63,967 nt of DNA, filler included, from an uncultured Methanosarcinales archaeon (GCA_964385185.1; 7 parts of 7 records of this genome joined end to end with filler, not necessarily neighbours in it); one strand, 5' to 3'. Shown: positions 10,722-60,601, counted from the first letter of the whole stretch. Notes: generated by a model from the sequence alone, not told the origin. Translations and numbers: made by a program.

Positions 10722-10821
10722 NNNNNNNNNNNNNNNNNNNNNNNNNNNNNNNNNNNNNNNNNNNNTTAATTAATTAANNNNNNNNNNNNNNNNNNNNNNN
10801 NNNNNNNNNNNNNNNNNNNNN
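10722..10821. other. Artificial contig linker
   Basis: N44-TTAATTAATTAA-N44. Confidence 0.99.
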
Positions 10822-11272: not shown

Positions 11273-11363
11273 ACACACAGCAGGTATACAGAAAATGATC
11301 CTTCTAATGATGCGGTATACAAAAACCTATAAATGAAATCACATTACCCTATATTGAGCACAC

Positions 11364-13391
11364 ATGATATCAACAAATAAAATTCTACAAGTGGTAAAAC
11401 GAGATGGAAATCTTGTAGATTTCGATGTAAAACCCATCATGGATGCCGTCTTCAAAGCTACCGAGTCGGTGGGAAAACCAGACGCAGATATCACCTCTAA
11501 AACCACTTCTAAAGTGTTAGAAATGTTAAATCAAACATTTCCTGAAGGAACAGCACCAACAGTAGAAGATATTCAAGATGTTGTAGAACAAGTACTCATA
11601 GATGAAAATCTTCCAAAACTGGCCAAAGCATATATTCTATTTAGAGAAGAACGACAACAGTCACGATTACAAAAAGAAGCAATTCTGGGTCAAATTGATA
11701 TGTCTAAATTATCTCCTAATGCGGTGCTCATTGCAAAAAGAAGATATCTCCAAAAAGACCGAGTAAATAAAACACTAGAGTCTCCCGATCAAATGTTTGA
11801 GCGTGTTGCAAAAGCAGTAGCAGGTCCTGAAAAAAAATACAACAAAGAGAATGCCAATGCAACAGAGAGAAAATTCTACAATATGATCGCTAATCTAGAT
11901 TTTGTACCTGCCGGTAGAGTATTAGCTGCTGCAGGAACAGATGAGTCTCAATTATTAAGCAGTTTTGTAGTAGCAATTGGAGATTCCACAAAAGAAATAT
12001 TCAAAGCACTGTATGATTCTTCTATTATTAAAAGATTTGGAGGGGGAGTTGGATTTTCATTTTCAAGTATTCGGAAAAAAGGAACCCCTCTACCAAAAAC
12101 AGATGCACTAGCATCAGGACCGGTATCGTTTATGCACTTATATGATCATGCATCTTCGTTAATCTCCTCTGCGGGAAGCAGAAAAGGAGCAAACATGGGA
12201 TCTCTATCAGTAGAACATCCAGACATCATTGACTTTATCACCTCTAAAACTTCCAACACACTTCCAAATTTTAACTTTTCAGTAGAAATTACAGACAATT
12301 TTATGAAAGCTGTGTTAAAAAATGCAGAATATGATCTTATAGATCCCGTATCAAAAAAACCAGTAGAAAAAGTAGGAGCAAAAACTGTATTTGACCTCTT
12401 AATAACTATGGCTTGGAAATATGGAGATCCAGGTATCCTGTTTATTGATCAAATAAACAAAGCAAATCCCACCCCGAAATTAGGAAGATTTGAAACTACT
12501 GATCCTTGTGGAGATCAACCTCTCTTCCCCTATGCAGGTGTATGCTATGGTGCTATCAATCTTGTAAATTTTGTCGAAAAAAAGGAATTAAATTGGGATA
12601 AATTAAAAGAAATTATCCCCTTATCTGTCAGATTTTTAGACAATGTATTAGACATCTCAAAATTTCCAATTAAAACGTTCAAAAAAACAACCCTCTCACT
12701 ACGAAACATTGGATTAGGGATCATGGGATTTGCAGATCTCTTGTATGCGCTCCACATTCCTTACGATTCTAGAGAAGCTGAAAAACTAGCAGATAAAATA
12801 ATGGAATTTATCCAGAACCATGCCCACAACGCCTCTGTAAAACTAGCTGAAGAAAGAGGAAATTTTCCAGAGTGGGAAAAAAGTGTCTATGCAAAAAAAC
12901 AAACACCGATGAGAAATGCATCGGTGACAACCATTTCACCTTGTGGTGCAAGAAGTATCATTGCAGACACATCGGGAGGAATTGAACCAAATTTTGCCCT
13001 AGGATACTACCGAAGAACAGATGCAGTAGGTGAAATTCTCCAAGTAAATCGTGTTTTCCAAGAAGTTGCCAAACAAAGAGGATTCTATTCCAAAGATCTG
13101 ATGAGATCAATCACATCCACTGGATCTATCCAAAATATGAAAGATCTTCCAGAAGACATAAGAAAAGTATATGTAACAGCATTAGATGTATCCCCTGAAT
13201 GGCATATTCGAATCCAGGCAGCATTTCAGAAGCATGTTGATGCAGGTATCTCAAAAACCATTAACTTTCCATTCAACGCATCTATTAACGATGTAGAAAA
13301 TGCCTGTCTCCTTGCGTACAAACTGGGATGTAAAGGATTAACAATGTATAGAGATGGGAGTAGATCTGATCAAATTATAACTACAAAATAA
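11364..13391 (+). CDS. ATP-cone class II ribonucleotide reductase paralog with altered active-site residues
   Basis: ATP cone (VVKRDG...VEDIQDVVE), GGGVGFSFS, HPDI, GDPG, IGLGIMG, YRDGSR; but QLLSSFV and DPCGD replace QLSACFV and NPCGE. Confidence 0.85.
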   Translation: MISTNKILQVVKRDGNLVDFDVKPIMDAVFKATESVGKPDADITSKTTSKVLEMLNQTFPEGTAPTVEDIQDVVEQVLIDENLPKLAKAYILFREERQQSRLQKEAILGQIDMSKLSPNAVLIAKRRYLQKDRVNKTLESPDQMFERVAKAVAGPEKKYNKENANATERKFYNMIANLDFVPAGRVLAAAGTDESQLLSSFVVAIGDSTKEIFKALYDSSIIKRFGGGVGFSFSSIRKKGTPLPKTDALASGPVSFMHLYDHASSLISSAGSRKGANMGSLSVEHPDIIDFITSKTSNTLPNFNFSVEITDNFMKAVLKNAEYDLIDPVSKKPVEKVGAKTVFDLLITMAWKYGDPGILFIDQINKANPTPKLGRFETTDPCGDQPLFPYAGVCYGAINLVNFVEKKELNWDKLKEIIPLSVRFLDNVLDISKFPIKTFKKTTLSLRNIGLGIMGFADLLYALHIPYDSREAEKLADKIMEFIQNHAHNASVKLAEERGNFPEWEKSVYAKKQTPMRNASVTTISPCGARSIIADTSGGIEPNFALGYYRRTDAVGEILQVNRVFQEVAKQRGFYSKDLMRSITSTGSIQNMKDLPEDIRKVYVTALDVSPEWHIRIQAAFQKHVDAGISKTINFPFNASINDVENACLLAYKLGCKGLTMYRDGSRSDQIITTK

Positions 13392-21091: not shown

Positions 21092-21191
21092 NNNNNNNNN
21101 NNNNNNNNNNNNNNNNNNNNNNNNNNNNNNNNNNNTTAATTAATTAANNNNNNNNNNNNNNNNNNNNNNNNNNNNNNNNNNNNNNNNNNNN
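21092..21191. other. Artificial contig linker
   Basis: N-run with TTAATTAATTAA. Confidence 0.99.
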
Positions 21192-31393: not shown

Positions 31394-31493
31394 NNNNNNN
31401 NNNNNNNNNNNNNNNNNNNNNNNNNNNNNNNNNNNNNTTAATTAATTAANNNNNNNNNNNNNNNNNNNNNNNNNNNNNNNNNNNNNNNNNNNN
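31394..31493. other. Artificial contig linker
   Basis: N-run with TTAATTAATTAA. Confidence 0.99.
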
Positions 31494-31733
31494 TTATTCT
31501 AAATCAGTCCGTAACCAAATCCTTCCAACAGCAGGATTAACAGGATCTGATGTTCATGATTCAACTACTAATCCACCTTGTGCATCAATAACAGTTCCAG
31601 AAAAATCAATCTCAGCTCCTGAATGTGACTGTCCAGCCTCATTGGCAACAACATATGCACCCATAACTAAAATAACTAAAACCACTCCTAAGATAATCAT
31701 TTTATTCTTGGAAATAGTAAATTCTAATTTCAT
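31494..31733 (-). pseudogene. Small membrane protein with an in-frame TGA
   Basis: MKLEFTISKNKMIILGVVLVILVMGAYVVANE...GGLVVES*TSDPVNPAVGRIWLRTDLE; TGA at 31554-31556. Confidence 0.55.
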
Positions 31734-31820
31734 TTATTAATTATTGGCTAAGAAGTTTATAAATTATTCTATTTTAGACATCCATTGAAAAGAAATCCTT
31801 ATATATTCCTTTCTTAGAAT

Positions 31821-32313
31821 ATGGTTATGCATGTTAGTAGAAAGTGGGTCGATTTAATTGTAATTCTTACCATCCTATCATTATTTTCACTTTCTGTGAA
31901 CGCCGCACCATGTACAGATTACGAAGGAGGTGTGAGCAAATTTGTCAGAGGTCATGTTCTTCTTACCTATCCTTTTTCACATTTTATAGATGATCGTTGT
32001 GATAGTGACAAACCTAATCACCTAAGTGAAAAAAGTTGCAGTGGGGGAAAATATGTGCCAACTACTATTAACTGTGGGGATGAAAATATATATAGATGGA
32101 ATATTGCTTGCAGAAAGGGTATCAGTATATAACACTAGAGGACATGGTGGAGCAAGTCCACCTTTTAATTTAGGTAATGGTTTCGGAAGTTTTGATGGGG
32201 TCATGGATGATATTATGGTATGGGGCAGACCCTTGAATGCTAATGAAGTTAAAGATTTGTATGAGTTTGATAAATATGATCAATTATCTGAATGGGCAAT
32301 AGCCCAATCTTAA
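31821..32313 (+). pseudogene. Fragmented secreted protein: Cys-rich N-terminus joined out of frame to a LamG-like C-terminus
   Basis: Signal peptide and Cys-rich part in one frame; MKIYIDG...FDGVMDDIMVWGRPL in another. Confidence 0.55.
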
Positions 32314-32379
32314 CAAATTTCGATCTAATTAAATCTATATTCCCTTACTTTTTTAAACTCCTTTGTATTCCCTTACACT

Positions 32380-33408
32380 ATGGAATCCCTAAAAACAATA
32401 AAGTCACAAATAGAACCACTCCTAGAGTCATTCTTCCAAGATAAACTAAAAAAAGCTTCTAAAATAGACCCTTCTTCAGAAGAAATGATTAACCTCCTTA
32501 AAGAATTCACCCTAAGAGGTGGAAAAAGAATAAGAGCAGCCTTAGTCTACCACGGATTTGCATTATTCCAAAAACCAAATAATGAAATCCTAAATGCAGC
32601 AATGGCTACTGAATTAGTACATGCTTTTCTGATGATCCACGATGATATCATAGACCAAGACGATACAAGACGTTCTGGCCCTACAATACACCATTCATAT
32701 GAAAAATTATTCAACAAACACTATGGAACATCATTTGCTATCTTAGCAGGAGATATCCTACATGCATTTGCCAATGAAATACTAGCTTCCTCCAACTTCC
32801 CTGACAATCATAAAGTAAAAGCAATCGAATCACTAAACAATACTGTAACTAAAGTGATCTATGGAGAATCTCTAGACGTCTTATCATCAATCAAACCTAA
32901 TTTTACAAAAAAAGACTTAGAATTAACACATTATCTAAAAACAGCTTCCTATACAGTAGAAGGACCACTCCACCTAGGAGCTATTCTAGCAGGAGCAACC
33001 AATCAACAACTCCAAACACTATCTAAATACGCTATCCCGCTAGGAAAAGCCTTCCAACTCCAAGATGATATCTTAGGATTATTCGGCGATGAAAAAAAAC
33101 TAGGAAAACCAGTAGCCTCAGACATTAAAGAAGGAAAGAAAACACTCTTAATCCTTAAGGCGTTAGAAAAAGCATCAGAACATGACAAAACAGTCTTGAA
33201 AGCCAGCCTAAACAATCAAAATGTAACAAAAGAAGACATACAAAAAGTAAGAGATATAGTAACAGCAACTAATTCCTTAGAACACTCTCAAAATACAGCA
33301 AAGAAACTAATTAAGCAAGCAAAACAAGCAATAACTAATCTTCCCCAATCAGAAAGTAAACAATTTCTTATTGAATTAGCTGACTATATGTTAGAGAGAA
33401 CTATTTAG
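32380..33408 (+). CDS. idsA: trans-polyprenyl (GGPP/FPP) synthase
   Basis: GGKRIR, HDDIIDQDDTRR, KTASY, FQLQDDILG, SDIKEGKKT. Confidence 0.92.
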   Translation: MESLKTIKSQIEPLLESFFQDKLKKASKIDPSSEEMINLLKEFTLRGGKRIRAALVYHGFALFQKPNNEILNAAMATELVHAFLMIHDDIIDQDDTRRSGPTIHHSYEKLFNKHYGTSFAILAGDILHAFANEILASSNFPDNHKVKAIESLNNTVTKVIYGESLDVLSSIKPNFTKKDLELTHYLKTASYTVEGPLHLGAILAGATNQQLQTLSKYAIPLGKAFQLQDDILGLFGDEKKLGKPVASDIKEGKKTLLILKALEKASEHDKTVLKASLNNQNVTKEDIQKVRDIVTATNSLEHSQNTAKKLIKQAKQAITNLPQSESKQFLIELADYMLERTI

Positions 33409-34093
33409 GGTTAGCATATTGTAATCCAACAAGAATACTATGTGGTTGAACTCTAATTTGATATTCTTTTCCATCTCCAAGGTGATAGGGCACTCCAACC
33501 TTCAGTTCCGTAGCATCAGTAAAGAAATATGCGGATCCCTGAACTAAAGTGATACTTGCATCGCCTGTTGTCGTGAACGTTGCATCTATAGTACTATTTT
33601 TAACCCTCGTAACAGCAATCCTGCTAATATCTCCTTCTCCTGGAAATCCTTGATGGAGTCTAGTAAATGTGGCTAGATGTGATGTATTGGTTTGAAGCAA
33701 GTACGGAGGATCTTTCCGAGTAAATATGTTCGACCCTTCAGCGCAACAGATAATGGTACTAGCTCCCCTTATTCTTTCGTAACCAGCTTCATGACCTCCC
33801 ATATAGGCACTTTCACCTTGTTCTAACACTTCAAATGTACTATCCCTTTCGTCGGAAGTTTGTATCTCAACCTCTCCAGAAACAACGTGATGTAAAGATC
33901 TGCTAGAATCTCCTTCTAAATTAATACCTCCATGAATCGGAATAGTAACTAAATGGACTATATTAGGACTGTATTCAATATTTCCATTTTCTTCATCACC
34001 TTTCTGAAATAATACATATCGAGAAAAATCTTCTGTGTCAATTCTATCAAAATCTTCAAGATGATCAACAAAACGAGTAATTTGCCTTCGCAT
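33401..34093 (-). CDS. Hypothetical protein, possibly a degenerate bicupin
   Basis: 230-aa ORF; HVVSGEVEI and TLVQGSAYF resemble cupin strands. Confidence 0.55.
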   Translation of the reverse strand: MRRQITRFVDHLEDFDRIDTEDFSRYVLFQKGDEENGNIEYSPNIVHLVTIPIHGGINLEGDSSRSLHHVVSGEVEIQTSDERDSTFEVLEQGESAYMGGHEAGYERIRGASTIICCAEGSNIFTRKDPPYLLQTNTSHLATFTRLHQGFPGEGDISRIAVTRVKNSTIDATFTTTGDASITLVQGSAYFFTDATELKVGVPYHLGDGKEYQIRVQPHSILVGLQYANPK

Positions 34094-34169
34094 AAGCTAA
34101 AGAATTCCTAAGGGGTTTTAAAGATTTGTATCATCCACAAACTATAGAAAAAGACAACCTATCACTGTC

Positions 34170-34214
34170 CTCGCAGTCGAAAGACTGCGAGAGTCGGCAC
34201 TGTGTCAGTGCCAT
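34170..34214. repeat. REP-like two-hairpin element, copy 1
   Basis: CTCGCAGTC-GAAA-GACTGCGAG AGTC GGCACTG-TGT-CAGTGCC AT. Confidence 0.9.
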
Positions 34215-34236
34215 CTCCATTTCCTATGACTTAAAA

Positions 34237-34947
34237 TTATTTACCAAAACGTCTTTCCCTTCTACTAAACTCATTAATACACTCAACAAAATCCTCTTTT
34301 TCAAATTCAGGCCAGAATTTCTCTAAGAAGATCCATTCTGAATAATGACTTTGCCATAATAAAAAATTAGAAGTTCTCTGAGCACCACCAGTCCGAATAA
34401 TCAACTCAGGCTCATCTTCCATATACAAATTCTTAGCAAAAGTCTCTTCATTAATATCTTCAACACTTAAATCCCCTTTCTTTACAGATTCAGCCACTTT
34501 CTTAACAGCATCAACAACCTCTTGCCTTCCACCATACCCCATGGCAAAGTTAACAACATAATTACTATGCTTTGAAGTCATTTCCATTAACTGCTTAATC
34601 TTCTCCTGAACACTCTTAGGGAACATATACAATCGTCCAATAAAATTCAAACGAACTCCATTCTTCTTCAATCGATCATCACTAAGCAACTTATCAAACT
34701 CTTTGTCAAATACACCCATAAGATAGTCAAACTCAACCTTTGGCCGATTAAAGTTTTCAACAGAGAAACAATACAATGTTAATTCCTTTACCCCTAATTC
34801 CATAGCCCAATCCAATAACTTCTCAACTTTCTGAGCTCCCCATTCATGGCCTTTCCAAGGTTTCATCATTAATCGTTTAGAAAACCTTCTATTACCATCA
34901 AGAATAACTCCGATATGCTTAGGAACTTTACTTTCAGTTGCTTCCAT
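34237..34947 (-). CDS. uppS: cis-prenyltransferase (undecaprenyl diphosphate synthase family)
   Basis: PKHIGVILDGNRR, FSVENFNRP, YGGRQE, IRTGGAQRTSNFLLWQ. Confidence 0.96.
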   Translation of the reverse strand: MEATESKVPKHIGVILDGNRRFSKRLMMKPWKGHEWGAQKVEKLLDWAMELGVKELTLYCFSVENFNRPKVEFDYLMGVFDKEFDKLLSDDRLKKNGVRLNFIGRLYMFPKSVQEKIKQLMEMTSKHSNYVVNFAMGYGGRQEVVDAVKKVAESVKKGDLSVEDINEETFAKNLYMEDEPELIIRTGGAQRTSNFLLWQSHYSEWIFLEKFWPEFEKEDFVECINEFSRRERRFGK

Positions 34948-34968
34948 CTATATTCCTCAATTCTCAAC

Positions 34969-35451
34969 CTATTTAAATAATTTACGACTAAACACTTCAA
35001 TAAACAAATCCTGAGGTATCATAATTCCGGCTCCAATAAAACGTTTAGCTAAATCAAAACCATCTTCTGTACCACGAGGCTGTTTATATTCAATTAATTC
35101 CTTAAGAGTATGACCATTCAAAAATCCTTCATTCATCCGTAACGTAACATCCTTTTTGCCCATCTTCACAGAGTGCTTTCCAAACGATACTTTCTCCACC
35201 CCATGTTTCTTGAACTCCCATTTGACCAAATCACCAATAAGTGAAGCCTTACTAAGATTTGTCATATAGGTCCCAACATCTTTTCCCACAAAACTCCAGT
35301 AATCAACGGAAACAGGATCCTCATAAGAAACAACTCTACCTAAATACTTACTCACAGATTGCTTGGGCTGCTTCTTAGCTTTAATCCACTTAGTCTTAAC
35401 AAGATAAGCATACTCTCTATCCTTAATCTTTTTGACACGAATATAAGCCAT
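34969..35451 (-). CDS. Hypothetical basic protein
   Basis: MAYIRVKKIKDREYAYLV...KYLGR beta-hairpin N-terminus. Confidence 0.7.
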   Translation of the reverse strand: MAYIRVKKIKDREYAYLVKTKWIKAKKQPKQSVSKYLGRVVSYEDPVSVDYWSFVGKDVGTYMTNLSKASLIGDLVKWEFKKHGVEKVSFGKHSVKMGKKDVTLRMNEGFLNGHTLKELIEYKQPRGTEDGFDLAKRFIGAGIMIPQDLFIEVFSRKLFK

Positions 35452-35625
35452 ACATTCTCACACATCTACCCCTATATAAGGATTATGGAGTTAGGCACTA
35501 TGTGAACACCCTTCTTTTCAACAACAATCAATTACCAAAAAATCTCCCTTTACCGTCGTCAAAAGAAAATATTATCTCATATCTCAACAAGACCAATATA
35601 CCCCAAAAAAGAGCTATATAGGTAA

Positions 35626-35664
35626 CACCACTACTACCGGTGCCCACAGGGCACAGTAGTGGTG
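35626..35664. repeat. Nested hairpin with ACA loop
   Basis: CACCACTACT-ACCG-GTGCCC-ACA-GGGCAC-AGTAGTGGTG. Confidence 0.8.
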
Positions 35665-35682
35665 AATGAATGTCTCAAAAGG

Positions 35683-35727
35683 CTCGCAGTCGAAAGACTG
35701 CGAGAGTCGGCATGCTGTGCATGCCAT
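35683..35727. repeat. REP-like two-hairpin element, copy 2
   Basis: CTCGCAGTC-GAAA-GACTGCGAG AGTC GGCATGC-TGT-GCATGCC AT. Confidence 0.9.
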
Positions 35728-35773
35728 TAAAGTTTCTTATTTAGAATAAATTATTACAAAAAACTAAAAATTC

Positions 35774-36052
35774 TTACTTAATATTACCACTAATAGCTTT
35801 CTTTAAAGCTTCATTTCTTTTCTTTAACTTACCAGCAGCAGCCAATAAAGCTTTCTTAGGTGTACTAGAACTATCAGTCTCAACAATAAGCCGAGGAATA
35901 CCCACTAAAGGATGTCTGATAGTATAACCAGCATTCTTAACATGACTATCATCATTCAATTCATTCCGAAGAGCATTACAGAGAGTATGATCTCCTTCTT
36001 TAACCTGAACAATAAGCTTATTCTTCTTCTCTAAAAGAACGTTTAATTCCAT
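35774..36052 (-). CDS. rpoL: DNA-directed RNA polymerase subunit L (Rpo11)
   Basis: DHTLCNALR...AGYTIRHPL. Confidence 0.93.
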   Translation of the reverse strand: MELNVLLEKKNKLIVQVKEGDHTLCNALRNELNDDSHVKNAGYTIRHPLVGIPRLIVETDSSSTPKKALLAAAGKLKKRNEALKKAISGNIK

Positions 36053-36129
36053 AGCATGTAGAACTATTATGTTATTTATAAGGTTTTCTATGTTATCAAT
36101 TTATAAATCAATATTTATTCCCAAATCAA

Positions 36130-36627
36130 ATGAAAGAAATGTATCATTACACAACAGAGAGGAAATGGAAACAAATCCAAGCCGACAAACAGCTTAACCC
36201 AAATTCAGCTCCATTTGAATTATTCCCTACAGACGGCTTTGAAGATACAGTCCCATTTCATGGCTATACAGTTGGTGTTAATGATCAAGAAGCATCAGAC
36301 TGGAAAGCATGTGGAGAGTTTGAAAAACTCATAGAATATACATCAGAAGAAGTAATCCTAAAACTTCATTCAGATCATGAATTTATTTTTGTAAGGAATA
36401 TCTATCCAGCATCACCTCAAGGTCTAATCGAAAACTACGGCATAGATCTAAGAAAAAAATTACATGAAGAAGGATTACAAGGTCATGAAAACGATCAATT
36501 GGATGAAGCATTTTTTGCATACTATCTATCCACAACATTATTATCAGATTACAAAAATAATTTCAAAGCCATAGAAATCTGGACACCACAAACATTTACA
36601 TTAGACCAAATTGAAAGAGTAAAATAG
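36130..36627 (+). CDS. Hypothetical protein
   Basis: 165-aa ORF with an upstream TTTATAAA box; N-terminal MYHYT. Confidence 0.65.
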   Translation: MKEMYHYTTERKWKQIQADKQLNPNSAPFELFPTDGFEDTVPFHGYTVGVNDQEASDWKACGEFEKLIEYTSEEVILKLHSDHEFIFVRNIYPASPQGLIENYGIDLRKKLHEEGLQGHENDQLDEAFFAYYLSTTLLSDYKNNFKAIEIWTPQTFTLDQIERVK

Positions 36628-36668
36628 AAATTAAATTAAAAATAAAACAAAGAAATTCAAATTTTTCT

Positions 36669-36732
36669 TCATTCCCATTCAATCCCAAGCCTGGGAATGA
36701 CACATTTTGTCGTCTAAAAAAGACATTCCCAA
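36669..36732. promoter_or_regulatory. Satellite cluster of CATTCCCA motifs plus CATTTTGTCGTC
   Basis: TCATTCCCA 36669, inverted CTGGGAATGAC 36691, CATTTTGTCGTC 36703, GACATTCCCAA 36722. Confidence 0.65.
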
Positions 36733-36753
36733 CAAATTATTCAGAATTTATTA

Positions 36754-37386
36754 TTATTTCTTACGTACAAACCTAAAAGCAGTAACTGCAACGTTCTCAA
36801 CCTTCTTTTTATGATGTGCCATAGACTTTTTTAGCGGAAAATTATAGTCTATCGAGCGCTCAATGACAAAACCAGAGTCTTCAGCCAGAGTTTTAACAAA
36901 TGAAAGAGTACTAGTCTTATGAAAACTCCAGACAACATCAGCAACACTAAATGCCTTCACCAAAAAATTCCGATCAGCATGTTTCTGCCGTGTCCCAAAC
37001 GGTGGATTCATGATAACACAGTCAACTTTCTGACTAAAATCAGCTATATCACCGGCTATAATCTCCATTTCACACTCACTTTCATCCCCACACTCCTTAG
37101 CCACATTACGCCCCAATACCTCAAGGGCATCTTTATCATTTTCAACCATAAATACCTTCCCAGAACCCAATAATCCTACCCCAATACCGAGAATTCCGGT
37201 GCCAGAACCCAAATCCACACTCACTTTACCAAAATCACCTAATAACCCTCCTTCCCAAACCACGTCAGACGCAATTTCAGAGTCTGTAGGGTACTGTTCA
37301 GCACTCACTTTAGCATTTGTGAACCCCTCAAGCCGTGATAACCTCACAGCCAGGTCTTTTTTGCTTCGAATTTGCTTCATAAACAC
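36754..37386 (-). CDS. METTL5-family SAM-dependent methyltransferase
   Basis: EQYPT, DLGSGTGILG, MNPPFG, HADRNFL, FHK. Confidence 0.9.
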   Translation of the reverse strand: MFMKQIRSKKDLAVRLSRLEGFTNAKVSAEQYPTDSEIASDVVWEGGLLGDFGKVSVDLGSGTGILGIGVGLLGSGKVFMVENDKDALEVLGRNVAKECGDESECEMEIIAGDIADFSQKVDCVIMNPPFGTRQKHADRNFLVKAFSVADVVWSFHKTSTLSFVKTLAEDSGFVIERSIDYNFPLKKSMAHHKKKVENVAVTAFRFVRKK

Positions 37387-37837
37387 TCACTTTCATCTAC
37401 TACCCTATAAACTTATTTATTTACACTATAGTAATTAATAAATCCTACCCTATTTACCCTCACTTTAACCTAATCCTTCCTAATATTAATTAATTACAGT
37501 ATAGAAAATAATTAATCTAACACTCACTTTTCACTATCCTAACCCAAATATCGCCAATATTCCCCAAAATACCCTAAATCATGCCTAAACGAACTCTCAC
37601 TTTTGCCCTATTTTACCTTAATTTCCATATAGAAAATAATAAAATCTCTCATTATACACCTCTCATTTCCCTCCATATACCCTCCAGAATACCTTTTTTC
37701 AAACCCTCAAATTTTCCAAAATCTACCCCTCGATTTTTGACCAAATTTACAAGCCCAAAAAGACTAAAAAATTTCGATCAAAAATCTATCAAAAAATCTA
37801 GCAAAATTATCGCAAAAATCCTACCCTCCAAAACCGA

Positions 37838-38037
37838 GACATTCCCATCATAACCCTCAAAAAAAGTCATTCCCAGCTCATTCCCAAGACATTCCCAGGA
37901 CTTTCCCAGAACGTTCCCAGGAATGACCTCATTTTCAGGTATGAAAAGAACACAAAAAAAGAATAACATTCCCAGAACGTTCCCAATACATTCCCACTAT
38001 AGTCCCAAATGCACAAATTTTATATACTTGGGAATGA
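37838..38037. repeat. Phased 11-bp tandem iteron-like array, consensus (G/A)ACATTCCCA(G/A)
   Basis: TTCCCA cores at 37870, 37881, 37892, 37903, 37914, then 37969, 37980, 37991 and GTCCCA at 38002; a single copy at 37842; inverted copies near 37917-37927 and 38028-38037. Confidence 0.92.
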
Positions 38038-38048
38038 AAAAAGTGAGC

Positions 38049-38717
38049 ATGTGGCCTTTTAGTAAAGACGAATCTCAAGAAATTATCACAATAAAAAACA
38101 ATGTAGAATCATCTTTCTCAAATGTCAAAGGAGATGTCTACAACATTTATGCATGGGTCAGACACCTCCAACAGTCCAACGAATTTCTAAAAGCTCAGGC
38201 CCAAAATACAAATCAACAATTACAAATAATTACCCAAAAATTGGACACATCCAACATTTCAAAAACTGAAATCAAACACATGATCGATGAACACTACTCC
38301 CACCACACTTCCCACCATTATGCACAATTTGACCATATTACCCAAAAATTAGACTCCATAGCAGATATAAACCGTCAAAAAACAGCAGATATCTTTGAAA
38401 GACTTGATATCATCTCAAAAAGAGTAGAACAGGTCGAAAATACCCCTATAGCCAAAAAGAGAACATTTAAGGAGAAAATAGTCCAAAAAATACAAAAATC
38501 ATCCAAAGACTACGTAAAATCAATCATTTTAAACTTCATTAGGAAGTATGAAAGAATATCAGCCCTCAAATTAAGAGAAATAGTAGTAGAAGAGCAAGGT
38601 TTGGCTTCAAAATCCTCATTCTACCGAATTTTGGAAGAAATAGAAGATCAAGAGGATATAACAATAATCAGAGAAGGAAAAGAGAAGATTTACATCCTTA
38701 AAATGGCCCAAAATTAG
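38049..38717 (+). CDS. Coiled-coil protein with C-terminal winged helix
   Basis: True start likely MWPFSK at 38049, after TTTATATA; the ORF-track extension reads through the repeat array. C-terminus ISALKLREIVVEEQGLASKSSFYRILEEI...IREGKEKIY. Confidence 0.8.
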   Translation: MWPFSKDESQEIITIKNNVESSFSNVKGDVYNIYAWVRHLQQSNEFLKAQAQNTNQQLQIITQKLDTSNISKTEIKHMIDEHYSHHTSHHYAQFDHITQKLDSIADINRQKTADIFERLDIISKRVEQVENTPIAKKRTFKEKIVQKIQKSSKDYVKSIILNFIRKYERISALKLREIVVEEQGLASKSSFYRILEEIEDQEDITIIREGKEKIYILKMAQN

Positions 38718-38727
38718 TGATTTCTTC

Positions 38728-38771
38728 CATTTTGTCGTCGGTACGACGACTCAAACAAAAAACTATTTAAA
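38728..38771. promoter_or_regulatory. GTCGTC-N5-GACGAC palindrome upstream of a TATA-like box
   Basis: CATTTTGTCGTC GGTAC GACGAC at 38728-38750; TATTTAAA at 38764. Confidence 0.6.
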
Positions 38772-38808
38772 CCCCTCATCTATAGAATATCTCAGGGGGT
38801 GAAATAAG

Positions 38809-39342
38809 GTGTTAGAACAAAAAAGAGAGAGTGCTGTAATACATACTGAATTGTTTTCTGAAGTCTTATCCACTATAAGAGAGGAGTTTGATGAACACTT
38901 AGAGTCTATAAACGACAATACTGCTGAGGTTCAACAGAGTTTCTCCTGTTTAGCAGAATTAGACGAAAAAATCAACAAATTAGCGACCAGATTAGAGAAG
39001 GTTGAGCTATATCTAGAGAATAAAGGCTTTGAAACGTCAGAAACGCCTAAATTCCATGTTAGAGACCTAACAGAGAGAGAAAAGTCCTTATTTTTGGTAA
39101 TATACAAGCTAGAGAACGAAAGGATGCCTATCACGTATAGATCAATCCAAAAACACAGCTGTCTACCAAAGACACTAATTCAAGGATATATTGCATCAAT
39201 GATTGAAAAAGGGATACCGATTACAAAATCCCATAAAAACAACATAGTGCAATTAAAGTTGGATCCACAGTTTAAGGCAATTCAAGCAAAACAAAATATT
39301 GTAAAACTTGAACAACAAACTTTGCAACATATTTTGGCCTAA
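38809..39342 (+). CDS. Coiled-coil protein with C-terminal winged helix
   Basis: N-terminal heptads; LTEREKSLFLVIY...ITYRSI...YIASMIEKGIPI; GGGGTGA RBS. Confidence 0.8.
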   Translation: MLEQKRESAVIHTELFSEVLSTIREEFDEHLESINDNTAEVQQSFSCLAELDEKINKLATRLEKVELYLENKGFETSETPKFHVRDLTEREKSLFLVIYKLENERMPITYRSIQKHSCLPKTLIQGYIASMIEKGIPITKSHKNNIVQLKLDPQFKAIQAKQNIVKLEQQTLQHILA

Positions 39343-39457
39343 AATCCAGCAATAAAACCTTTAATCAAAGATTAAAAGTTTTAATCTATTACATACCATA
39401 TGGAAAATAATTACCAATTTTCCAAAGATTGACCCATTGGCACATCAAACAACAAAA

Positions 39458-39485
39458 GGTTCTCTTAATACAAGTTAGGAGAACT
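39458..39485. other. Candidate XerA recombination site (dif)
   Basis: GGTTCTCTTAA-TACAAG-TTAGGAGAACT: 11-6-11 inverted arms with TAA-N6-TTA core, about 0.9 kb from xerA; the same arm occurs at the xerA start. Confidence 0.75.
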
Positions 39486-39588
39486 TTTCCTTCGGGGAAT
39501 TCCCGAATACGCAAAATACCCCTTATTCGCACTCAAAAGGTAGGGGTAGAAAAGCAAGTTTTTTAAGTATTTTAACAATTCTAAGAAT

Positions 39589-39897
39589 ATGAGACAAAGA
39601 TACCATCTGCATAAAGCAAATGCTTTAGAGATTGATGATAATGGGAAAGTGTATGAAATTGGTAGAGTAACAGAACCCCAACCATTGATTGGGACCTTTG
39701 AAAACTTCTATTTAACAATGGGTGATGCAAAAAATCAACCAATGGGAAACGGATATTTCTTTGCAGATCAAGACCTGATAGATAAATTAGGAAATCCTAT
39801 TGCAGATAAACCAAGACCAGGTGTTCATATTTTAATTAAAACTGGAATTACATATCTTTTCAGCAATCCTATACAAGCCATTGCAAAAAGAAGATAA
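39589..39897 (+). CDS. Hypothetical protein
   Basis: 102-aa ORF with AT-rich upstream box. Confidence 0.55.
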   Translation: MRQRYHLHKANALEIDDNGKVYEIGRVTEPQPLIGTFENFYLTMGDAKNQPMGNGYFFADQDLIDKLGNPIADKPRPGVHILIKTGITYLFSNPIQAIAKRR

Positions 39898-39976
39898 ATC
39901 CTATATCCTACACCACTAAATAAACTTTTAATCAATAATTAAAACTTTTATTCTATTTATTACCATACTGAAACTA

Positions 39977-40327
39977 TTAATCAAACTTTGCGCCAAGTCC
40001 AACAGTACTCAATCGCTTATTCACTTCATCTGCAGTAATATAGCCATCCCCGCTTTCATCTACTACTTTTACATTAGTCGGATACTGGAAAGAGATCCCC
40101 ATCGCATAATGTGCAGCAATAGTGAGAGATTCTTTGGGATTATTTCCCACTTCAATCATAGTAAAATATTTAGTTTTTCCAATCCTACAATAAGCGTGAT
40201 TACCTTGAATATAGGCACCATCAGCACCCATTCTTTTTTTAACGATATGTTGCACACCTTTATCTATAGGTTTACATCCAGAAAATAACAATAGTGCACA
40301 TAAAGTGAGTTCAGTAATCCTTCCCAT
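39977..40327 (-). CDS. Putative lipoprotein with EF-hand-like loop
   Basis: LLLFSGC lipobox-like; DESGDGYITADE. Confidence 0.6.
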   Translation of the reverse strand: MGRITELTLCALLLFSGCKPIDKGVQHIVKKRMGADGAYIQGNHAYCRIGKTKYFTMIEVGNNPKESLTIAAHYAMGISFQYPTNVKVVDESGDGYITADEVNKRLSTVGLGAKFD

Positions 40328-40377
40328 ACAGAATAAATTATTACTTCAATTAAAAACATATAGCTACTGCAAAATAA

Positions 40378-41196
40378 TCAATCCAAAGGACTTCTAACTT
40401 TCTTCAATTGTTCCCTACTCACCTTAGTATATCTTTCAGTAGTAGAAAGATTACTATGCCCTAATAATTCCTGAATAATCCTAATGTCAGTCCCATTCTC
40501 AAGTAAGTGAGTTGCAAAACTACTCCTTAATGCGTGTGGGAATACTCTTTTGGTCATTCCCAAACGGGAAGCAGCCAACTTCACAATCTTCTGTCCCATT
40601 TTAGTCGTGATACACCTATCTCCAATATTGAATAAAAAAGGGTTATTCCCAGCTTTCTTAGCACGTTTCTTCAAATATTTGGGAATGTCTTTTACAAAAC
40701 CTTCTGATAATATAATATGTCGATCCTTACGACCCTTACCACTCACCACCATCCCCATTCTCTCTTCAACATTCAAATCTTCAATTTTTATACTTGTTGC
40801 TTCACTCACACGAAGCCCAGAACCATACAAAAACTTCAAAAACAACCGATGTTTAACATTCTTAGTATTTGAAATCATTGCTTGAATCTCTTCCTTATCC
40901 AACACAACTGGAATCTTCTTTTCAGATTTAGGAGCCTCAATCTTAGCAAATAAATCCTTTTCTAATATTTTTTTATAGTAAAATCGCAAGGCACAAAGAG
41001 CCAAATTAACAGAGGCAGGTTTTAACTTCCTATCGCTAATCAAATGCCCCAGATAAGCCTTCACATCACTCTCTTCAACTTCAGAAGCCTCTTTACCACT
41101 AAAACCAAGAAAAGCTTTGTTATGATACATATACGACTCCACAGTCTTATCAGTAAAGCCACGTAGCTTTAATTCAGACTCTAATTCTTTTAACAT
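40378..41196 (-). CDS. xerA: XerA-type tyrosine recombinase
   Basis: GLRVSE, GKGRKDR, HALRSSFATHLLE, LLGH, TTERYT: all catalytic R-K-H-R-H-Y present; no IntI-specific insertion. Confidence 0.9.
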   Translation of the reverse strand: MLKELESELKLRGFTDKTVESYMYHNKAFLGFSGKEASEVEESDVKAYLGHLISDRKLKPASVNLALCALRFYYKKILEKDLFAKIEAPKSEKKIPVVLDKEEIQAMISNTKNVKHRLFLKFLYGSGLRVSEATSIKIEDLNVEERMGMVVSGKGRKDRHIILSEGFVKDIPKYLKKRAKKAGNNPFLFNIGDRCITTKMGQKIVKLAASRLGMTKRVFPHALRSSFATHLLENGTDIRIIQELLGHSNLSTTERYTKVSREQLKKVRSPLD

Positions 41197-41217
41197 TAGA
41201 CATTAAGAGAACTTTTA

Positions 41218-41317
41218 NNNNNNNNNNNNNNNNNNNNNNNNNNNNNNNNNNNNNNNNNNNNTTAATTAATTAANNNNNNNNNNNNNNNNNNNNNNNNNNN
41301 NNNNNNNNNNNNNNNNN
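41218..41317. other. Artificial contig linker
   Basis: N-run with TTAATTAATTAA. Confidence 0.99.
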
Positions 41318-50877: not shown

Positions 50878-50977
50878 NNNNNNNNNNNNNNNNNNNNNNN
50901 NNNNNNNNNNNNNNNNNNNNNTTAATTAATTAANNNNNNNNNNNNNNNNNNNNNNNNNNNNNNNNNNNNNNNNNNNN
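50878..50977. other. Artificial contig linker
   Basis: N-run with TTAATTAATTAA. Confidence 0.99.
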
Positions 50978-60501: not shown

Positions 60502-60601
60502 NNNNNNNNNNNNNNNNNNNNNNNNNNNNNNNNNNNNNNNNNNNNTTAATTAATTAANNNNNNNNNNNNNNNNNNNNNNNNNNNNNNNNNNNNNNNNNNN
60601 N
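60502..60601. other. Artificial contig linker
   Basis: N-run with TTAATTAATTAA. Confidence 0.99.

Follow-up and report, generated by a model that had tools for sequence, protein, structure and literature searches.

A conserved chromosomal locus of Woesearchaeota with a phased repeat array, two coiled-coil winged-helix genes and a frequently attached dif-xerA

The locus described here raises the question of why an array of phased repeats, two coiled-coil winged-helix genes, a dif-like site and xerA lie side by side in an archaeal chromosome. The data were taken from the window (the whole stretch of DNA that was analysed, 63,967 nucleotides, filler included) and from 80 related loci totalling 1.18 Mb, which represent 2-6% of each genome. 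All of the elements listed by the sequence-only reading of the window were found at or near the places it gave and above chance. Its picture is corrected in one respect: the window is a set of contigs chained by N44-TTAATTAATTAA-N44 linkers, and the contig of interest spans 31494-41217, leaving 21 bp in front of the xerA start. The features of the array and the two genes are as follows.

36670..36731, unstranded: satellite site, with CATTCCCA forward at 36670 and 36724 and reverse at 36692, and TTTTGTCGTC at 36705
36754..37386, minus strand: METTL5-like small-domain methyltransferase gene (Pfam MTS 1.1e-10), transcribed away from gene 1
37387..37840, unstranded: G-poor non-coding tract, 454 bp, 18 G (4.0%)
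37842..38036, plus strand: TCCCA repeat array, comprising a distal site, 5 sites, a 55-bp gap, 4 sites and 1 inverted site
38011..38019, plus strand: gene-1 TATA-like box TTTTATATA, read from the sequence
38049..38717, plus strand: gene 1, 222 aa, with a helical hairpin (residues 6-67 and 72-131) and a C-terminal winged helix (140-221)
38734..38750, unstranded: palindrome GTCGTCG-GTA-CGACGAC, between the gene-1 stop and the gene-2 TATA
38809..39342, plus strand: gene 2, 177 aa, with a long N-terminal helix (2-71) and a MarR-like winged helix (89-151)

The left flank had been taken for housekeeping, and this held: it carries genes for a polyprenyl synthase, uppS, rpoL and the small-domain methyltransferase, viral hallmarks are missing, and the PHROGs matches were to the integrase only. 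Among the related loci rpoL lies upstream in 73/80, the methyltransferase gene was detected by tblastn in 50/80 (in L020 the divergent gene ahead of gene 1 is a Methyltrans_RNA gene), and the flanking genes are again housekeeping (L1/L10, uppS, PAC2 and eIF2-gamma). Gene 2 follows gene 1 in 78 of the 80, both misses being contig ends. The locus is chromosomal and conserved across many Woesearchaeota. The function of the neighbourhood appears to be undescribed so far, and a literature search found nothing naming both DPANN and XerA.

The phased 11-bp array claimed at the gene-1 promoter was borne out by ten forward TCCCA sites in two clusters. Forward [TG]TCCCA words start at 37842, 37870, 37881, 37892, 37903, 37914, 37969, 37980, 37991 and 38002, and Tandem Repeats Finder reported a period of 11 for two stretches, 37868-37922 (5 copies) and 37965-38008. 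In 37870-37919 there are five sites 11 bp apart and in 37969-38007 four; since the clusters are 55 bp apart (5 x 11), they are in phase. The inverted TCCCA site at 38029-38036 falls between the TATA-like box, called from the archaeal TATA consensus, and the start codon of gene 1, which homologues place at 38049 and not at 37923. The satellite was likewise found to hold both motifs, with three copies of CATTCCCA plus TTTTGTCGTC, and lies between the 3' ends of an ORF at 36130-36627 and of the methyltransferase gene. The window has 13 copies of CATTCCCA where 2.7 would be expected, and 0/100 shuffles have as many; 12 of the 13 copies are within 36670-40687 and one is outside the locus.

These observations extend to the relatives. 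At least five forward TCCCA sites were counted in the 650 bp upstream of gene 1 in 61 of the 75 loci with enough upstream sequence, as opposed to 0/1180 control windows; the inspected members of the other 14, with fewer than five exact forward sites, hold degenerate or inverted versions of the motif. The gene-1-proximal half of the tract carries a median of 9 and a maximum of 22 (A/T)(T/G)TCCCA sites on one strand, spaced by exact multiples of 11 bp and usually in two blocks, the last of which adjoins the gene-1 BRE/TATA. Distances between site pairs peak at the successive multiples of 11, from 11, 22 and 33 to 88 bp. The 8-mers ATTCCCAA (63/80 loci, 115-fold over flanks) and TAGTCCCA (51/80, 310-fold) stand out. 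Sites cluster in the 500 bp ahead of the gene-1 start (578 in forward and 83 in reverse orientation), with mild enrichment of TCCCA-type sites at -2000 to -750. The TATA-like word starts at a median of -30 (68/80 loci) and the nearest forward site at a median of -51, and a reverse site is present between TATA and ATG in 18/80 loci compared with 2.1% of control 45-mers.

For both proteins, the proposed coiled-coil/wHTH build is supported by AlphaFold models with long helices followed by a C-terminal winged helix (pLDDT 83 and 88). The Foldseek matches are winged-helix DNA binders, namely the Hop2 WH (E 3.6e-3), the MarR family (E 3.4e-4), AspA and Sso10a, and apart from this fold neither family has relatives in Pfam or the PDB. 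The recognition-helix region of gene 1, SKSSFYRILEE, is nearly invariant across 51 sequences, which matches the invariance of TCCCA. In gene 2 a conserved ELDDHLxAINENTNEI motif lies in the long N-terminal helix. The palindrome reported ahead of gene 2 was located at 38734-38750, about 12 bp upstream of the gene-2 TATA CTATTTAAAC (about 38763-38772). The related TCGTCGA-type word TTATCGTC was present in only 26/80 upstream tracts; palindromes of this type are often placed between the two array blocks or ahead of gene 2.

The tract upstream of the array is, as had been noticed, extremely poor in G: no other 450-bp stretch of the 64-kb window, for which the median min(G,C) is 14.2%, is as depleted in G/C, and its GC skew is -0.66 to -0.70. 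It is built of units of about 73 bp, each with CTCACTTT on the plus strand (AAAGTGAG on the minus strand at 37386, 37459, 37523 and 37596). Among the related loci the non-coding tract is strand-asymmetric and kept at a length of 0.4-1.3 kb. AAGTGAG is embedded in the methyltransferase coding sequence at 37075, 37220 and 37304, with the AAAAGTGAGnGTT arrays extending into that sequence in two reading frames; in the methyltransferase coding sequences 138 AAGTGAG words were observed against 21 expected from synonymous-codon shuffling. On the plus strand of the related loci, CTCACTT was counted 350 times at -2000 to 0, left of the core, and AAGTGAG 125 times at +2000 to +6000, right of it, so that the left and right arrays are oppositely oriented around the core. 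AAAAGTGAGnGTT, a further polar motif, recurs in several long non-coding gaps close to the locus, where another conserved word, TTAGGCACYA, is found 8-70 nt from it.

The remaining features concern site-specific recombination.

39354..39382, unstranded: box pair 1, AAAACCTTTAA-TCAAAGA-TTAAAAGTTTT, 11-7-11, 10/11 complementary, within a 72-nt direct repeat (39346-39417)
39458..39485, unstranded: dif-like site GGTTCTCTTAA-TACAAG-TTAGGAGAACT, 11-6-11, TAA-N6-TTA, 9/11 arm complementarity
39921..39949, unstranded: box pair 2, TAAACTTTTAA-TCAATAA-TTAAAACTTTT, within the other copy of that 72-nt repeat (39913-39984)
40378..41196, minus strand: xerA tyrosine recombinase, 272 aa (NCBIfam NF040815; Pfam Phage_integrase 1.6e-38)
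41204..41214, unstranded: lone word resembling a dif arm, TTAAGAGAACT, at the end of the contig and 7 nt before the xerA ATG, compared with 39458-39485

The assignment of xerA was confirmed, with 224.6 bits compared to an XerA equivalog cut-off of 220. The 11-6-11 dif-like site was also upheld and is the sole match in the window to a family pattern derived from the relatives; it conforms to TAA(N6-8)TTA, the criterion used for archaeal dif (PMC11840125, section 46). Palindromic TTAAAAsTTTTA boxes accompany this 28-bp site, and no second arm was matched for TTAAGAGAACT at the contig end. Across the 1.18 Mb, 13 of 17 family-pattern matches fall at +1100 to +3200, directly ahead of xerA in either orientation. 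In the 200 nt that precede xerA, inverted repeats scoring 10 or higher were obtained for 11/35 evaluable loci, as opposed to 6/289 controls. Of the 66 loci that could be evaluated for linkage, 39 have xerA within 4 kb. As the other 27 do not have it there, the wHTH pair and dif-xerA are separable modules, and on a quick gene-1 tree the linkage is clustered, with a large clade lacking it. Orthologues thus carry upstream arrays and are frequently linked to xerA/dif, and the sequence-only reading, which had staked itself on a synteny survey of this kind, stands in that respect.

The best reading is a Woesearchaeota-type (Nanobdellota) chromosomal module of two parts that are able to occur apart. 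The first, in all 80 related loci, consists of the non-coding tract followed by two lineage-specific coiled-coil winged-helix genes, and the second, in about 60% of evaluable genomes and in the window, is dif-xerA, with the 28-bp 11-6-11 site as the presumed target of XerA. We hypothesize, at about even confidence, that the whole is a conserved nucleoprotein array in which the product of gene 1 covers the phased repeats and controls the promoter of its own gene, dif-xerA being often attached. Oligomers of the gene-1 protein would bind successive sites on one helix face through flexibly tethered winged helices, and by coating 100-200 bp cooperatively they would extend to the gene-1 promoter and thereby fix the level of the protein. 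The gene-2 protein may bind a second class of motif, either the TCGTCGA-type palindromes or the AAAAGTGAGnGTT array. These pairings of motif and protein are suggested by adjacency and parallel conservation only. Autoregulation accounts neither for the 450 bp of the tract farthest from gene 1 nor for the AAAAGTGAGnGTT arrays, and the coated array may also mark a partition landmark or domain boundary next to dif.

If the coated array were itself the functional product, as a segrosome-like complex after the pattern of ParR-parC or TubR-tubC, or as a roadblock or loading site for SMC next to dif, autoregulation would be incidental; we consider this possible but rather doubtful, and the centromere-like or dif-organising reading is only an analogy. 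R1 parC consists of two blocks of five 11-bp repeats, and TubR is a winged-helix protein whose fold gene 1 is predicted to share. The architecture is as written for type III centromeres (TubR-tubC), and type II ParR-parC is alike: direct repeats in blocks lie upstream of the binder's gene and over its promoter, and are bound cooperatively to give repression and a higher-order complex (PMC6009700). The number of sites and their strict phasing over more than 100 bp surpass the need of a simple operator, neither the remainder of the window nor the flanks of the related loci (+-10 kb) showed another TCCCA array, xerA/dif is linked in 39/66 evaluable loci, and the length of the tract is conserved, compared to a coding density of about 93% in one genome of the same phylum (preprint 10.64898/2026.05.13.725050). 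A parallel is offered by Thermococcus, where a 1.9-kb intergenic region around dif is an SMC boundary through a filament-forming DNA-binding protein, and another by the haloarchaeal dif-like site upstream of the xerA operon (PMC11840125, section 8); in T. kodakarensis the protein is the winged-helix-type TrmBL2, and dif is reported to be co-located with a structural chromosome feature in several euryarchaea (PMC11840125, abstract and section 8). Unlike the ParR and TubR centromeres of plasmids and prophages, the present locus belongs to the chromosome and is kept across an order of archaea. Unlike the TrmBL2 boundary, it has discrete phased repeats and the protein genes encoded at the site, and in 27/66 evaluable loci dif is missing from the neighbourhood. 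A long coiled coil forms the N-terminal part of the gene-1 protein, there is always a second wHTH gene, and neither protein resembles TrmB (PF01978), ParR or TubR in sequence. A profile search of the contig agreed with the claim that ParA, SegA and Cdc6 are absent from it, and no ParA, ParM, TubZ, SegA or SMC gene was found on the contig, in the rest of the window or in the flanks of six related loci with scanned ORFs. The 27 evaluable loci without xerA within 4 kb argue in the same direction.

An ordinary pair of local transcription factors, whose many sites give tight, switch-like control of the divergent methyltransferase and gene 1-gene 2 promoters and whose proximity to xerA is inherited gene order, is unlikely. 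Such a pair would suit the wHTH type of both proteins, the arrays adjoining the gene-1 promoter, the rRNA-type methyltransferase as divergent gene in 50/80 loci and the clustered xerA linkage, but would leave unexplained the 9-22 phased sites, the extreme G depletion, the satellite in a 3'-3' gap and the AAAAGTGAGnGTT arrays in two reading frames of a coding sequence. It is very improbable that the repeats are initiator or terminator sites of an origin lacking an adjacent initiator gene, or of a terminus or fork trap around dif. Archaeal origins do contain short-repeat clusters, 13-bp mini-ORBs with invariant TTCC and GAA, some in a coding gene, and inverted ORBs (PMC1904270). TTCC is common to the array, the AAGTGAG arrays are oppositely oriented, loci L018 and L029 have a RecJ/Cdc45-like DHH-CID gene at a distance of 3-5 kb, and the B. 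subtilis replication terminator protein is among the weak fold matches (E 0.08-0.13). The GAA half is, however, not conserved after TTCCCA, and the third-position GC and AT skews of the flanking genes keep their sign across the locus in 37 xerA-linked and 39 unlinked loci (GC3 skew 0.275 left and 0.284 right for minus-strand genes, -0.034 and 0.002 for plus-strand genes), as the earlier caveat on strand asymmetry had it; most genes are on the minus strand on both sides. The absence of a switch argues against an origin or terminus here, so the suggested non-Orc1 origin is disfavoured. Orc1/Cdc6, reported from 206/208 complete genomes of the phylum (10.64898/2026.05.13.725050), was found neither in the window nor in the scanned flanks of six related loci. 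The 300-560 aa ORFs with a Walker-A motif that lie within 10 kb, gathered from all 80 loci, did not include it either; that filter returned five ORFs, namely three eIF2-gamma (one identified by scan, two by position), SRP54 and an AAA+ protein with an intein. Equally remote is the proposal that the tract and other long gaps encode unstructured or novel small RNAs regulated by the wHTH proteins, with AAAAGTGAGnGTT and TTAGGCACYA marking ends or promoters. The recurrence of both words in long gaps and the folding of 39390-39585 (z -4.6 against shuffles) would agree with this, but most of the fold comes from the dif palindrome and the inverted repeats next to it, stable helices cannot form on a strand with 4% G (or, for the complement, 4% C), and AAAAGTGAGnGTT also lies within coding sequence. 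No tRNA was found, and Rfam gave no family match on the contig at E up to 1, bar one at chance level, or at gathering score in seven related loci.

For the attached part of the preferred module, the closest counterparts are archaeal Xer/dif systems, which share the XerA equivalog and the inverted repeat. Recombinase-adjacent dif sites are also familiar in bacteria (XerS/difSL and XerH/difH). The relatives have the site immediately ahead of xerA, an arrangement also reported for Haloferax and Halobacterium, where a dif-like site precedes the xerA operon (PMC11840125, section 8). Thermococcales dif lies at the terminus and apart from xerA (PMC2958812), unlike the present locus with its constant strand bias. 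The window differs from the recombinase-adjacent arrangement in having a single arm at the xerA start, the full site being about 0.9 kb beyond the xerA 3' end, between the two box repeats.

The window was found to be a chain of contigs in descending order of size, with linkers of the form N44-TTAATTAATTAA-N44 between the pieces. Features on separate pieces are without physical linkage in the data. The locus contig (31494-41217) is 9.7 kb long and breaks off 21 bp ahead of the xerA start codon. Gene 1 and gene 2 denote the two genes predicted to encode coiled-coil/winged-helix proteins.

Linkers of the window and genes of the locus contig (window coordinates)
10722-10821, 21092-21191, 31394-31493, 41218-41317, 50878-50977, 60502-60601: linkers
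32380-33408, plus strand: polyprenyl synthase
33401-34093, minus strand: unnamed ORF
34237-34947, minus strand: uppS
34969-35451, minus strand: conserved unnamed ORF, 160 aa
35774-36052, minus strand: rpoL
36130-36627, plus strand: unnamed ORF
36754-37386, minus strand: small-domain (METTL5-like) methyltransferase
38049-38717, plus strand: gene 1, 222 aa
38809-39342, plus strand: gene 2, 177 aa
39589-39897, plus strand: small orphan ORF
39977-40327, minus strand: small ORF
40378-41196, minus strand: xerA

On the other window pieces the genes are unremarkable for an archaeon (PolD large subunit, ribonucleotide reductase, ribosomal proteins, eIF2-beta, CCA-adding enzyme), and Orc1/Cdc6, ParA, and SMC were not found among them.

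The sequence-only reading had proposed a chromosome-maintenance hub at 36669-41217 that included two coiled-coil/winged-helix genes. This description of the proteins was supported by AlphaFold2 models with family alignments, in which both are predicted to consist of long helices and a C-terminal winged helix. The gene-1 model (mean pLDDT 83) has a helical hairpin (residues 6-67 and 72-131), a low-confidence linker, and a winged helix (140-221), and the gene-2 model (mean pLDDT 88) has a single long helix (2-71) and a winged helix (89-151). Neither protein matched a Pfam, NCBIfam, or PHROGs family at the curated cut-off, MarR/TrmB-type families included, and comparison with PDB sequences gave no credible match for either, only coiled-coil noise and weak HTH matches. 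In Foldseek comparisons with the PDB, matches were confined to the winged-helix parts; gene 1 matched the Hop2 winged helix (E 3.6e-3), followed by BlaI, ArsR, MarR, Fur, and RTP, and gene 2 matched the MarR family (E 3.4e-4), followed by AF1382, AspA, and Sso10a. HTH_11 or HTH_24 was present in 10-30% of the members of Atlas look-alike clusters. No common origin of genes 1 and 2 was detectable (hhalign probability 2%; nothing by BLASTP), and the complex prediction for the two full-length proteins, with a score of 0.01 and a mark of 0.32, was counted neither way on binding.

A word-indexed search gave 126 relatives of gene 1, and a whole-library profile search gave 693 cluster representatives, 227 of them at E ≤1e-30, with lengths all about 150-410 aa; in the longer representatives the profile was matched in two separated stretches. 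The named relatives and the Atlas look-alike clusters belong to the Woesearchaeota or Nanobdellota. Strong conservation in gene 1 was observed for the C-terminal ...SKDYVK...YEKISALQLREIVVEEQGLCSKSSFYRILEE...GKEK and the N-terminal SFxxVKxDTxxxxxWxxYL, and alignment of the homologues placed the gene start at 38049 (MWPF...) rather than at the upstream ATG at 37923. In gene 2, ELDDHLxAINENTNEI and the winged helix are conserved, and the gene has a TATA element (CTATTTAAAC) and a GGGGGTG ribosome-binding site (Shine-Dalgarno). The invariant INENTNEI heptad (residues about 33-40) resembles the N-at-d motif of trimeric coiled coils. The weak PDB profile matches of gene 2 included trimeric adhesin and tail-needle coiled coils, which fit this resemblance.

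One genome per species (GTDB) was scanned with the gene-1 alignment, by which 159 relatives were confirmed, and the best 80 loci (labelled L001, L002, and so on) were taken with up to 10 kb per side; positions in these loci are counted from the gene-1 start. By tblastn with the window proteins, gene 2 follows gene 1 in 78 of the 80 loci, the two misses being contig ends. The same search found rpoL upstream in 73 loci, the 160-aa ORF in 71, uppS in 54, the METTL5-like methyltransferase in 50, where it is the gene divergent from gene 1, and xerA in 40. The window ORFs at 36130-36627, 39589-39897, 39977-40327, and 33401-34093 were found in 0 of 80 loci. The second and third of these, for which no Pfam, NCBIfam, or PHROGs family was found either, could represent a local insertion. 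Pfam annotation of 69 flanking ORFs from six loci gave housekeeping genes, namely L1, L10, PAC2, eIF2-gamma, S6e, and a RecJ/Cdc45-like DHH-CID protein, and no initiator or partition ATPase among them.

The G-poor non-coding stretch upstream of gene 1 (the tract) was placed at 37387-37840. With 18 G in 454 bp (4.0%), it is more depleted than any other 450-bp stretch of the window, and its GC skew reaches -0.70. The phased 11-bp array was likewise recovered by Tandem Repeats Finder, with period 11, at 37868-37922 and 37965-38008. Forward TCCCA words start at 37842, at 37870, 37881, 37892, 37903, and 37914, and at 37969, 37980, 37991, and 38002, with a single reverse word at 38029; the two clusters are 55 bp apart and therefore share the same helical phase. 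The TATA-like TTTTATATA follows the last repeat at 38011-38019. Against an expectation of 2.7 copies of the word CATTCCCA in the window, 13 were counted, 12 of them on the locus contig. The palindrome reported before gene 2 was located as GTCGTCG-GTA-CGACGAC at 38734-38750, just before the gene-2 TATA, and the satellite site described as containing both motifs at 36670-36731, where three copies of CATTCCCA are accompanied by TTTTGTCGTC.

The orthologues were found to carry such arrays as well. Statistics were taken from the 75 loci with at least 650 bp upstream, and 1180 windows of 650 bp from the same loci served as controls. At least five forward [TG]TCCCA sites were present in 61 of the 75 loci and in 0 of the 1180 control windows; the median per locus was 9 (range 0-22), with at least 8 in 46 loci and at least 12 in 20. 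Distances between site pairs peak at 11 bp (199 pairs), 22 bp (130), and 33 bp (95), and again at 44, 55, 66, 77, and 88 bp. Nearly all sites lie within 500 bp of gene 1 (578 forward, 83 reverse), and a mild excess at -2000 to -750 corresponds to satellite sites. The repeat consensus is (C/T)A(T/G)TCCCA(A/G), and loci poor in exact matches have the same layout through the degenerate words TAGTCTCA and TAATCCCA or through inverted pairs TGGGAC...GTCCCA. A frequent layout comprises block A (4-6 repeats), a 35-45-bp spacer, block B (4 repeats), and the TATA; the spacer often contains a TTTATCGTCGATAAA-type palindrome, and TTATCGTC was present in 26 of the 80 tracts (27-fold enrichment). A TATA-like word was recognized in 68 of 80 loci, its median start being -30 relative to gene 1. 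For the nearest forward site the median start is -51, which places it directly against the BRE/TATA. In 18 of the 80 loci a reverse site is found in the interval from TATA to ATG, compared to 2.1% of control 45-mers. The 500 bp upstream of gene 1 have a median G content of 9.8%, a median C content of 22.8%, and a median GC skew of -0.35, with upstream skew below -0.3 in 45 of the 75 loci and above 0 in 6. The ATATGGAAAATAA word was dropped from consideration as its enrichment was weak and uneven.

A second motif, AAAAGTGAGnGTT, occurs in the distal half of the tract, where it reads along the minus strand. The window has 15 matches to AAAGTGAG, against 3.9 expected for the whole window. Nine of the 15 are on the locus contig: seven lie within 37075-37603 on the minus strand, at intervals of 64-145 bp, and the others are at 38040 and 40302. 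To the left of gene 1 (-2000 to 0) the loci contain 350 plus-strand copies of CTCACTT against 7 of the complement, with a background of about 0.04 per kb. To the right of the core (tract, gene 1, and gene 2), at +2000 to +6000, the bias is reversed, with 125 copies of the complement against 45, and the complement is situated in additional long gaps without coding sequence. From these counts the core is flanked by arrays of opposite polarity. The motif is also found inside the methyltransferase coding sequence, with 138 sense copies in 50 genes compared to 21 expected from synonymous-codon shuffling. As these copies occur in two reading frames at conserved offsets (about 75, 290, and 470 nt), this excess points to selection on DNA or RNA rather than on protein. 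A second conserved word, TTAGGCACYA, often comes after the complement in the gaps on the right. It follows AAAAGTGAG by 8-70 nt in several long non-coding gaps and was located at +2200 to +4300 in L005, L017, L018, L019, and others, and on the minus strand of the window at 37575-37585. Neither the AAAAGTGAGnGTT-type motif nor TTAGGCACYA matched Rfam. A role of AAAGTGAG as a general ribosome-binding or promoter word was rejected, with 9 of its 15 window matches on one contig, and a general ribosome-binding function was further discounted because gene 2 uses GGGGGTG. Our guess is that the polar motif is the target of the gene-2 protein, since gene 2 and the motif are both nearly universal in the loci and the TCGTCGA word is not.

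The xerA gene, described earlier as intact, scored 224.6 bits against NF040815 (recomb_XerA_Arch; cut-off 220) and has the Pfam Phage_integrase domain and a SAM-like N domain. In archaea, dif is described as a pair of inverted 11-nt repeats separated by a 6-nt spacer (PMC8371274), and TAA(N6-8)TTA is named as the part that is most conserved (PMC11840125, section 46). The proposed 11-6-11 site was identified as GGTTCTCTTAA-TACAAG-TTAGGAGAACT at 39458-39485, with arms complementary at 9 of 11 positions and a TAA-N6-TTA center. As the sole window match to GTTCnnnTAA-N6-TTAnnnGAAC (16/17), it is, by sequence, confirmed as dif-like. A repeat scan after gene 2 found GTTCGTATAA-N6-TTATACGAAC sites in several loci, and a search of all 1.18 Mb of the loci with the same pattern, at 14/17 or better, gave 17 matches, 13 of them at +1100 to +3200 from gene 1. 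These 13 sites lie directly upstream of xerA, beside its TATA, for either orientation of xerA. Inverted repeats with a score of at least 10 were found within 200 nt upstream of xerA in 11 of 35 evaluable loci, compared to 6 of 289 control 200-mers. To judge from these sequences, dif and xerA probably form one small module in the relatives.

The window differs from its relatives in that the full dif-like site is not upstream of xerA and instead sits between 72-nt direct repeats (39346-39417 and 39913-39984, 75% identical), which bracket a 567-bp segment comprising the site and the orphan ORF 39589-39897. Each repeat copy carries one pair of palindromic boxes, TTAAAAsTTTTA, arranged as an 11-7-11 inverted repeat. 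The only other dif-like sequence visible in the 64 kb is a single arm-like word, TTAAGAGAACT, at 41204-41214, 7 nt before the xerA ATG and without a second arm, at the contig break. Compared with the full dif found 25-140 nt upstream of xerA in the relatives, this single arm suggests rearrangement or assembly heterogeneity at dif. In the window, boxes were found in both copies of the 72-nt repeat, with two weak matches, and nowhere else. Strict boxes in the loci lie at +600 to +2700, mostly at +1200 to +1800 (53 forward, 39 reverse), and none was found elsewhere in the tabulated span of -2000 to +3000. Boxes also flank dif in two loci (L063 and L003), and a looser box pattern was found in 37 of 39 loci with xerA within 4 kb of gene 1 (linked loci) and in 18 of 27 unlinked loci. 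The 72-nt repeats or boxes could be XerA accessory sites, or the bracketed segment could be a cassette inserted at dif. Two earlier dif candidates, the 11-7-11 box pairs and TATGGAAAATA-ATTACC-AATTTTCCAAA at 39399-39426, were set aside because the 39458-39485 site is a better match to the xerA-adjacent sites of the relatives.

The proposed synteny was borne out for the gene pair and its arrays and in part for xerA. Of 66 evaluable loci, 39 have xerA no more than 4 kb away from gene 1 and 27 lack it in that interval; a further 14 loci were too short to judge. Linked xerA is on the minus strand in 24 loci and on the plus strand in 15. On a quick maximum-likelihood tree of gene 1, used for this question alone, linkage was clustered (0 of 500 label shuffles as low), with linked loci prevailing in one half of the tree and unlinked loci in the other. 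Close relatives nevertheless differ in the orientation or presence of xerA (for example, L044, L068, and L043), so that dif-xerA has apparently been inverted or relocated, as a module, with respect to gene 2. This pattern implies that the winged-helix pair and the tract are the constant core and that dif-xerA is a frequent, rearrangeable neighbor. The next gene after gene 2 in unlinked loci is a conserved, convergent one of 174 aa (for example, 11273-11797, minus strand, in L017) that by eye looks like a third winged-helix protein, with a C-terminal helix; an ORF in the same place in L072 (11465-11977, minus strand) gave no Pfam match.

An integrated mobile element (virus, plasmid, or IMEX) was considered as the source of the locus. 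PHROGs matched the integrase alone, and this reading was rejected because the same housekeeping neighbors are conserved in 54-73 of the 80 loci. The sequence-only reading had also raised a non-Orc1 origin, with its own caveat against an origin or terminus exactly here. This was assessed from third-codon-position skews, in the coding sense, of ORFs of at least 150 aa on either side of the locus. In 37 linked loci the GC3 skew of minus-strand genes was 0.275 on the left and 0.284 on the right, and that of plus-strand genes -0.034 and 0.002; in 39 unlinked loci the sign of the asymmetry was reversed compared to the linked loci, yet was equal on both sides. Flanking genes are mostly minus-strand on both sides. 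The same sign on both sides indicates no polarity switch at the locus, which in the 37 linked loci speaks against a terminus if the skew reflects replication, and the caveat agrees with this result. No Orc1/Cdc6 was found in the window, in the six annotated loci, or by a Walker-A filter on ORFs of 300-560 aa in all 80 loci. Five ORFs were left by this filter: three were taken as eIF2-gamma (L001 by scanning; L002 and L003 by position and length), and of the remaining two, both scanned, one was SRP54 and the other an intein-containing AAA+ protein that lies in L025 at a distance of 9 kb from gene 1. Preprint 10.64898/2026.05.13.725050 gives ORC1/Cdc6 in 206 of 208 complete genomes of the phylum. 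The likeness of the repeat to the mini-ORBs of archaeal oriC, for which TTCC and GAA are described as invariant (PMC1904270), is confined to TTCC, the positions after TTCCCA not being conserved as GAA. An origin or terminus exactly at the locus was therefore rated unlikely.

The most economical reading of the core, drawn by analogy, is that the gene-1 protein would oligomerize via its helical hairpin, that its flexibly linked winged helices would occupy one TCCCA site after another along the same face of the DNA, and that it would thereby cooperatively coat both repeat blocks and so control its own promoter. A cis-architecture of this presumed kind, in which phased repeat blocks are bound by the product of the adjacent gene, is already known. 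ParR acts likewise on R1 parC, which has two blocks of five 11-bp repeats. In TubR-tubC, direct repeats split in blocks lie upstream of tubR, the operon is repressed, and a segrosome is formed (PMC6009700). The present locus is like both systems in having blocks of direct repeats upstream of the gene for the presumed binding protein, overlapping the gene-1 promoter. It differs from them in that the gene-1 and gene-2 proteins have no sequence homology to ParR or TubR and share only the generic winged-helix fold, and no motor NTPase (ParM, TubZ, or ParA) was found on the contig, in the window, or in the ±10-kb flanks of six loci. For these two reasons the comparison is worded as "works like" and not as "is a". 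A further parallel is provided by Thermococcus kodakarensis, in which dif lies in a 1.9-kb intergenic region described as an SMC-dependent boundary that acts via the filament-forming TrmBL2, while Haloferax and Halobacterium have a dif-like site upstream of the xerA operon (PMC11840125). By analogy, the locus in Woesearchaeota could represent a landmark of this type beside dif, in a form particular to the lineage. We hold it possible, at rather long odds, that the tract and genes 1 and 2 constitute a chromosomal centromere-like or architectural (boundary) landmark of Woesearchaeota-type DPANN archaea. With equal reserve, the two proteins might occupy the 11-bp-phased TCCCA array and the polar AAAAGTGAGnGTT arrays and form a complex that positions or insulates dif-xerA with no linked motor. 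Such a landmark, if real, would add a previously undescribed kind of partition or boundary device in archaea. Beside dif, it would be the archaeal equivalent, without a motor, of plasmid centromeres or of the dif boundary in Thermococcus, and it would extend the link between dif and chromosome architecture to DPANN. If the array is merely an autoregulatory operator, it is still unusually elaborate for one and is conserved across an order.

To our knowledge, next to nothing has been described of the organization, segregation, and resolution of the very small DPANN chromosomes, and no genetic manipulation is available yet. No description of the locus or of the gene-1 and gene-2 families was found in the literature, nor any work joining DPANN with XerA, and searches on Woesearchaeota replication origins and on DPANN chromosome segregation or winged-helix proteins returned nothing relevant. 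New are the chromosomal, order-wide setting in DPANN, the two protein families, the second, polar array, and the frequent join to dif-xerA. The locus supplies testable parts, namely two short soluble proteins, helically phased motifs, and a candidate dif with its recombinase, and the GTTCGTATAA-N6-TTATACGAAC consensus beside xerA can be used directly to find dif in complete Nanobdellota genomes. The preprint with the ORC1/Cdc6 counts (10.64898/2026.05.13.725050) also names an uncharacterized winged-helix regulator, OG0000296, as a single-copy core gene of the phylum, which may or may not be gene 1 or gene 2.

Several minor observations were made in the surroundings of the locus. In L020, the one locus viewed among those without the METTL5-like gene, a Methyltrans_RNA (RsmE-like) gene (8364-9125, minus strand) lies about 0.9-1.6 kb upstream of gene 1. 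A RecJ/Cdc45-like DHH-CID gene is located 3-5 kb upstream of the locus in L018 (5393-6817, minus strand) and L029 (5041-6462, minus strand); that of the window (6249-7631, plus strand) is on another contig than the locus. The titles of L046 (JAHILT010000040.1) and of many "uncultured Methanosarcinales" TPA records contradict their Woesearchaeota-type gene content, which is likely due to mis-binning or mislabelling. No tRNA genes were found, and Rfam gave no credible match in the locus contig or in seven loci. An identical GC-rich hairpin of 22 nt, with GAAA as its loop (CTCGCAGTC-GAAA-GACTGCGAG), is located at 34170-34191 and again at 35683-35704, just past where uppS and rpoL end on their 3' sides; no further copy was found in the window or in the 80 loci. 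A second hairpin comes after each copy, and its stem differs between the two places by compensatory changes.
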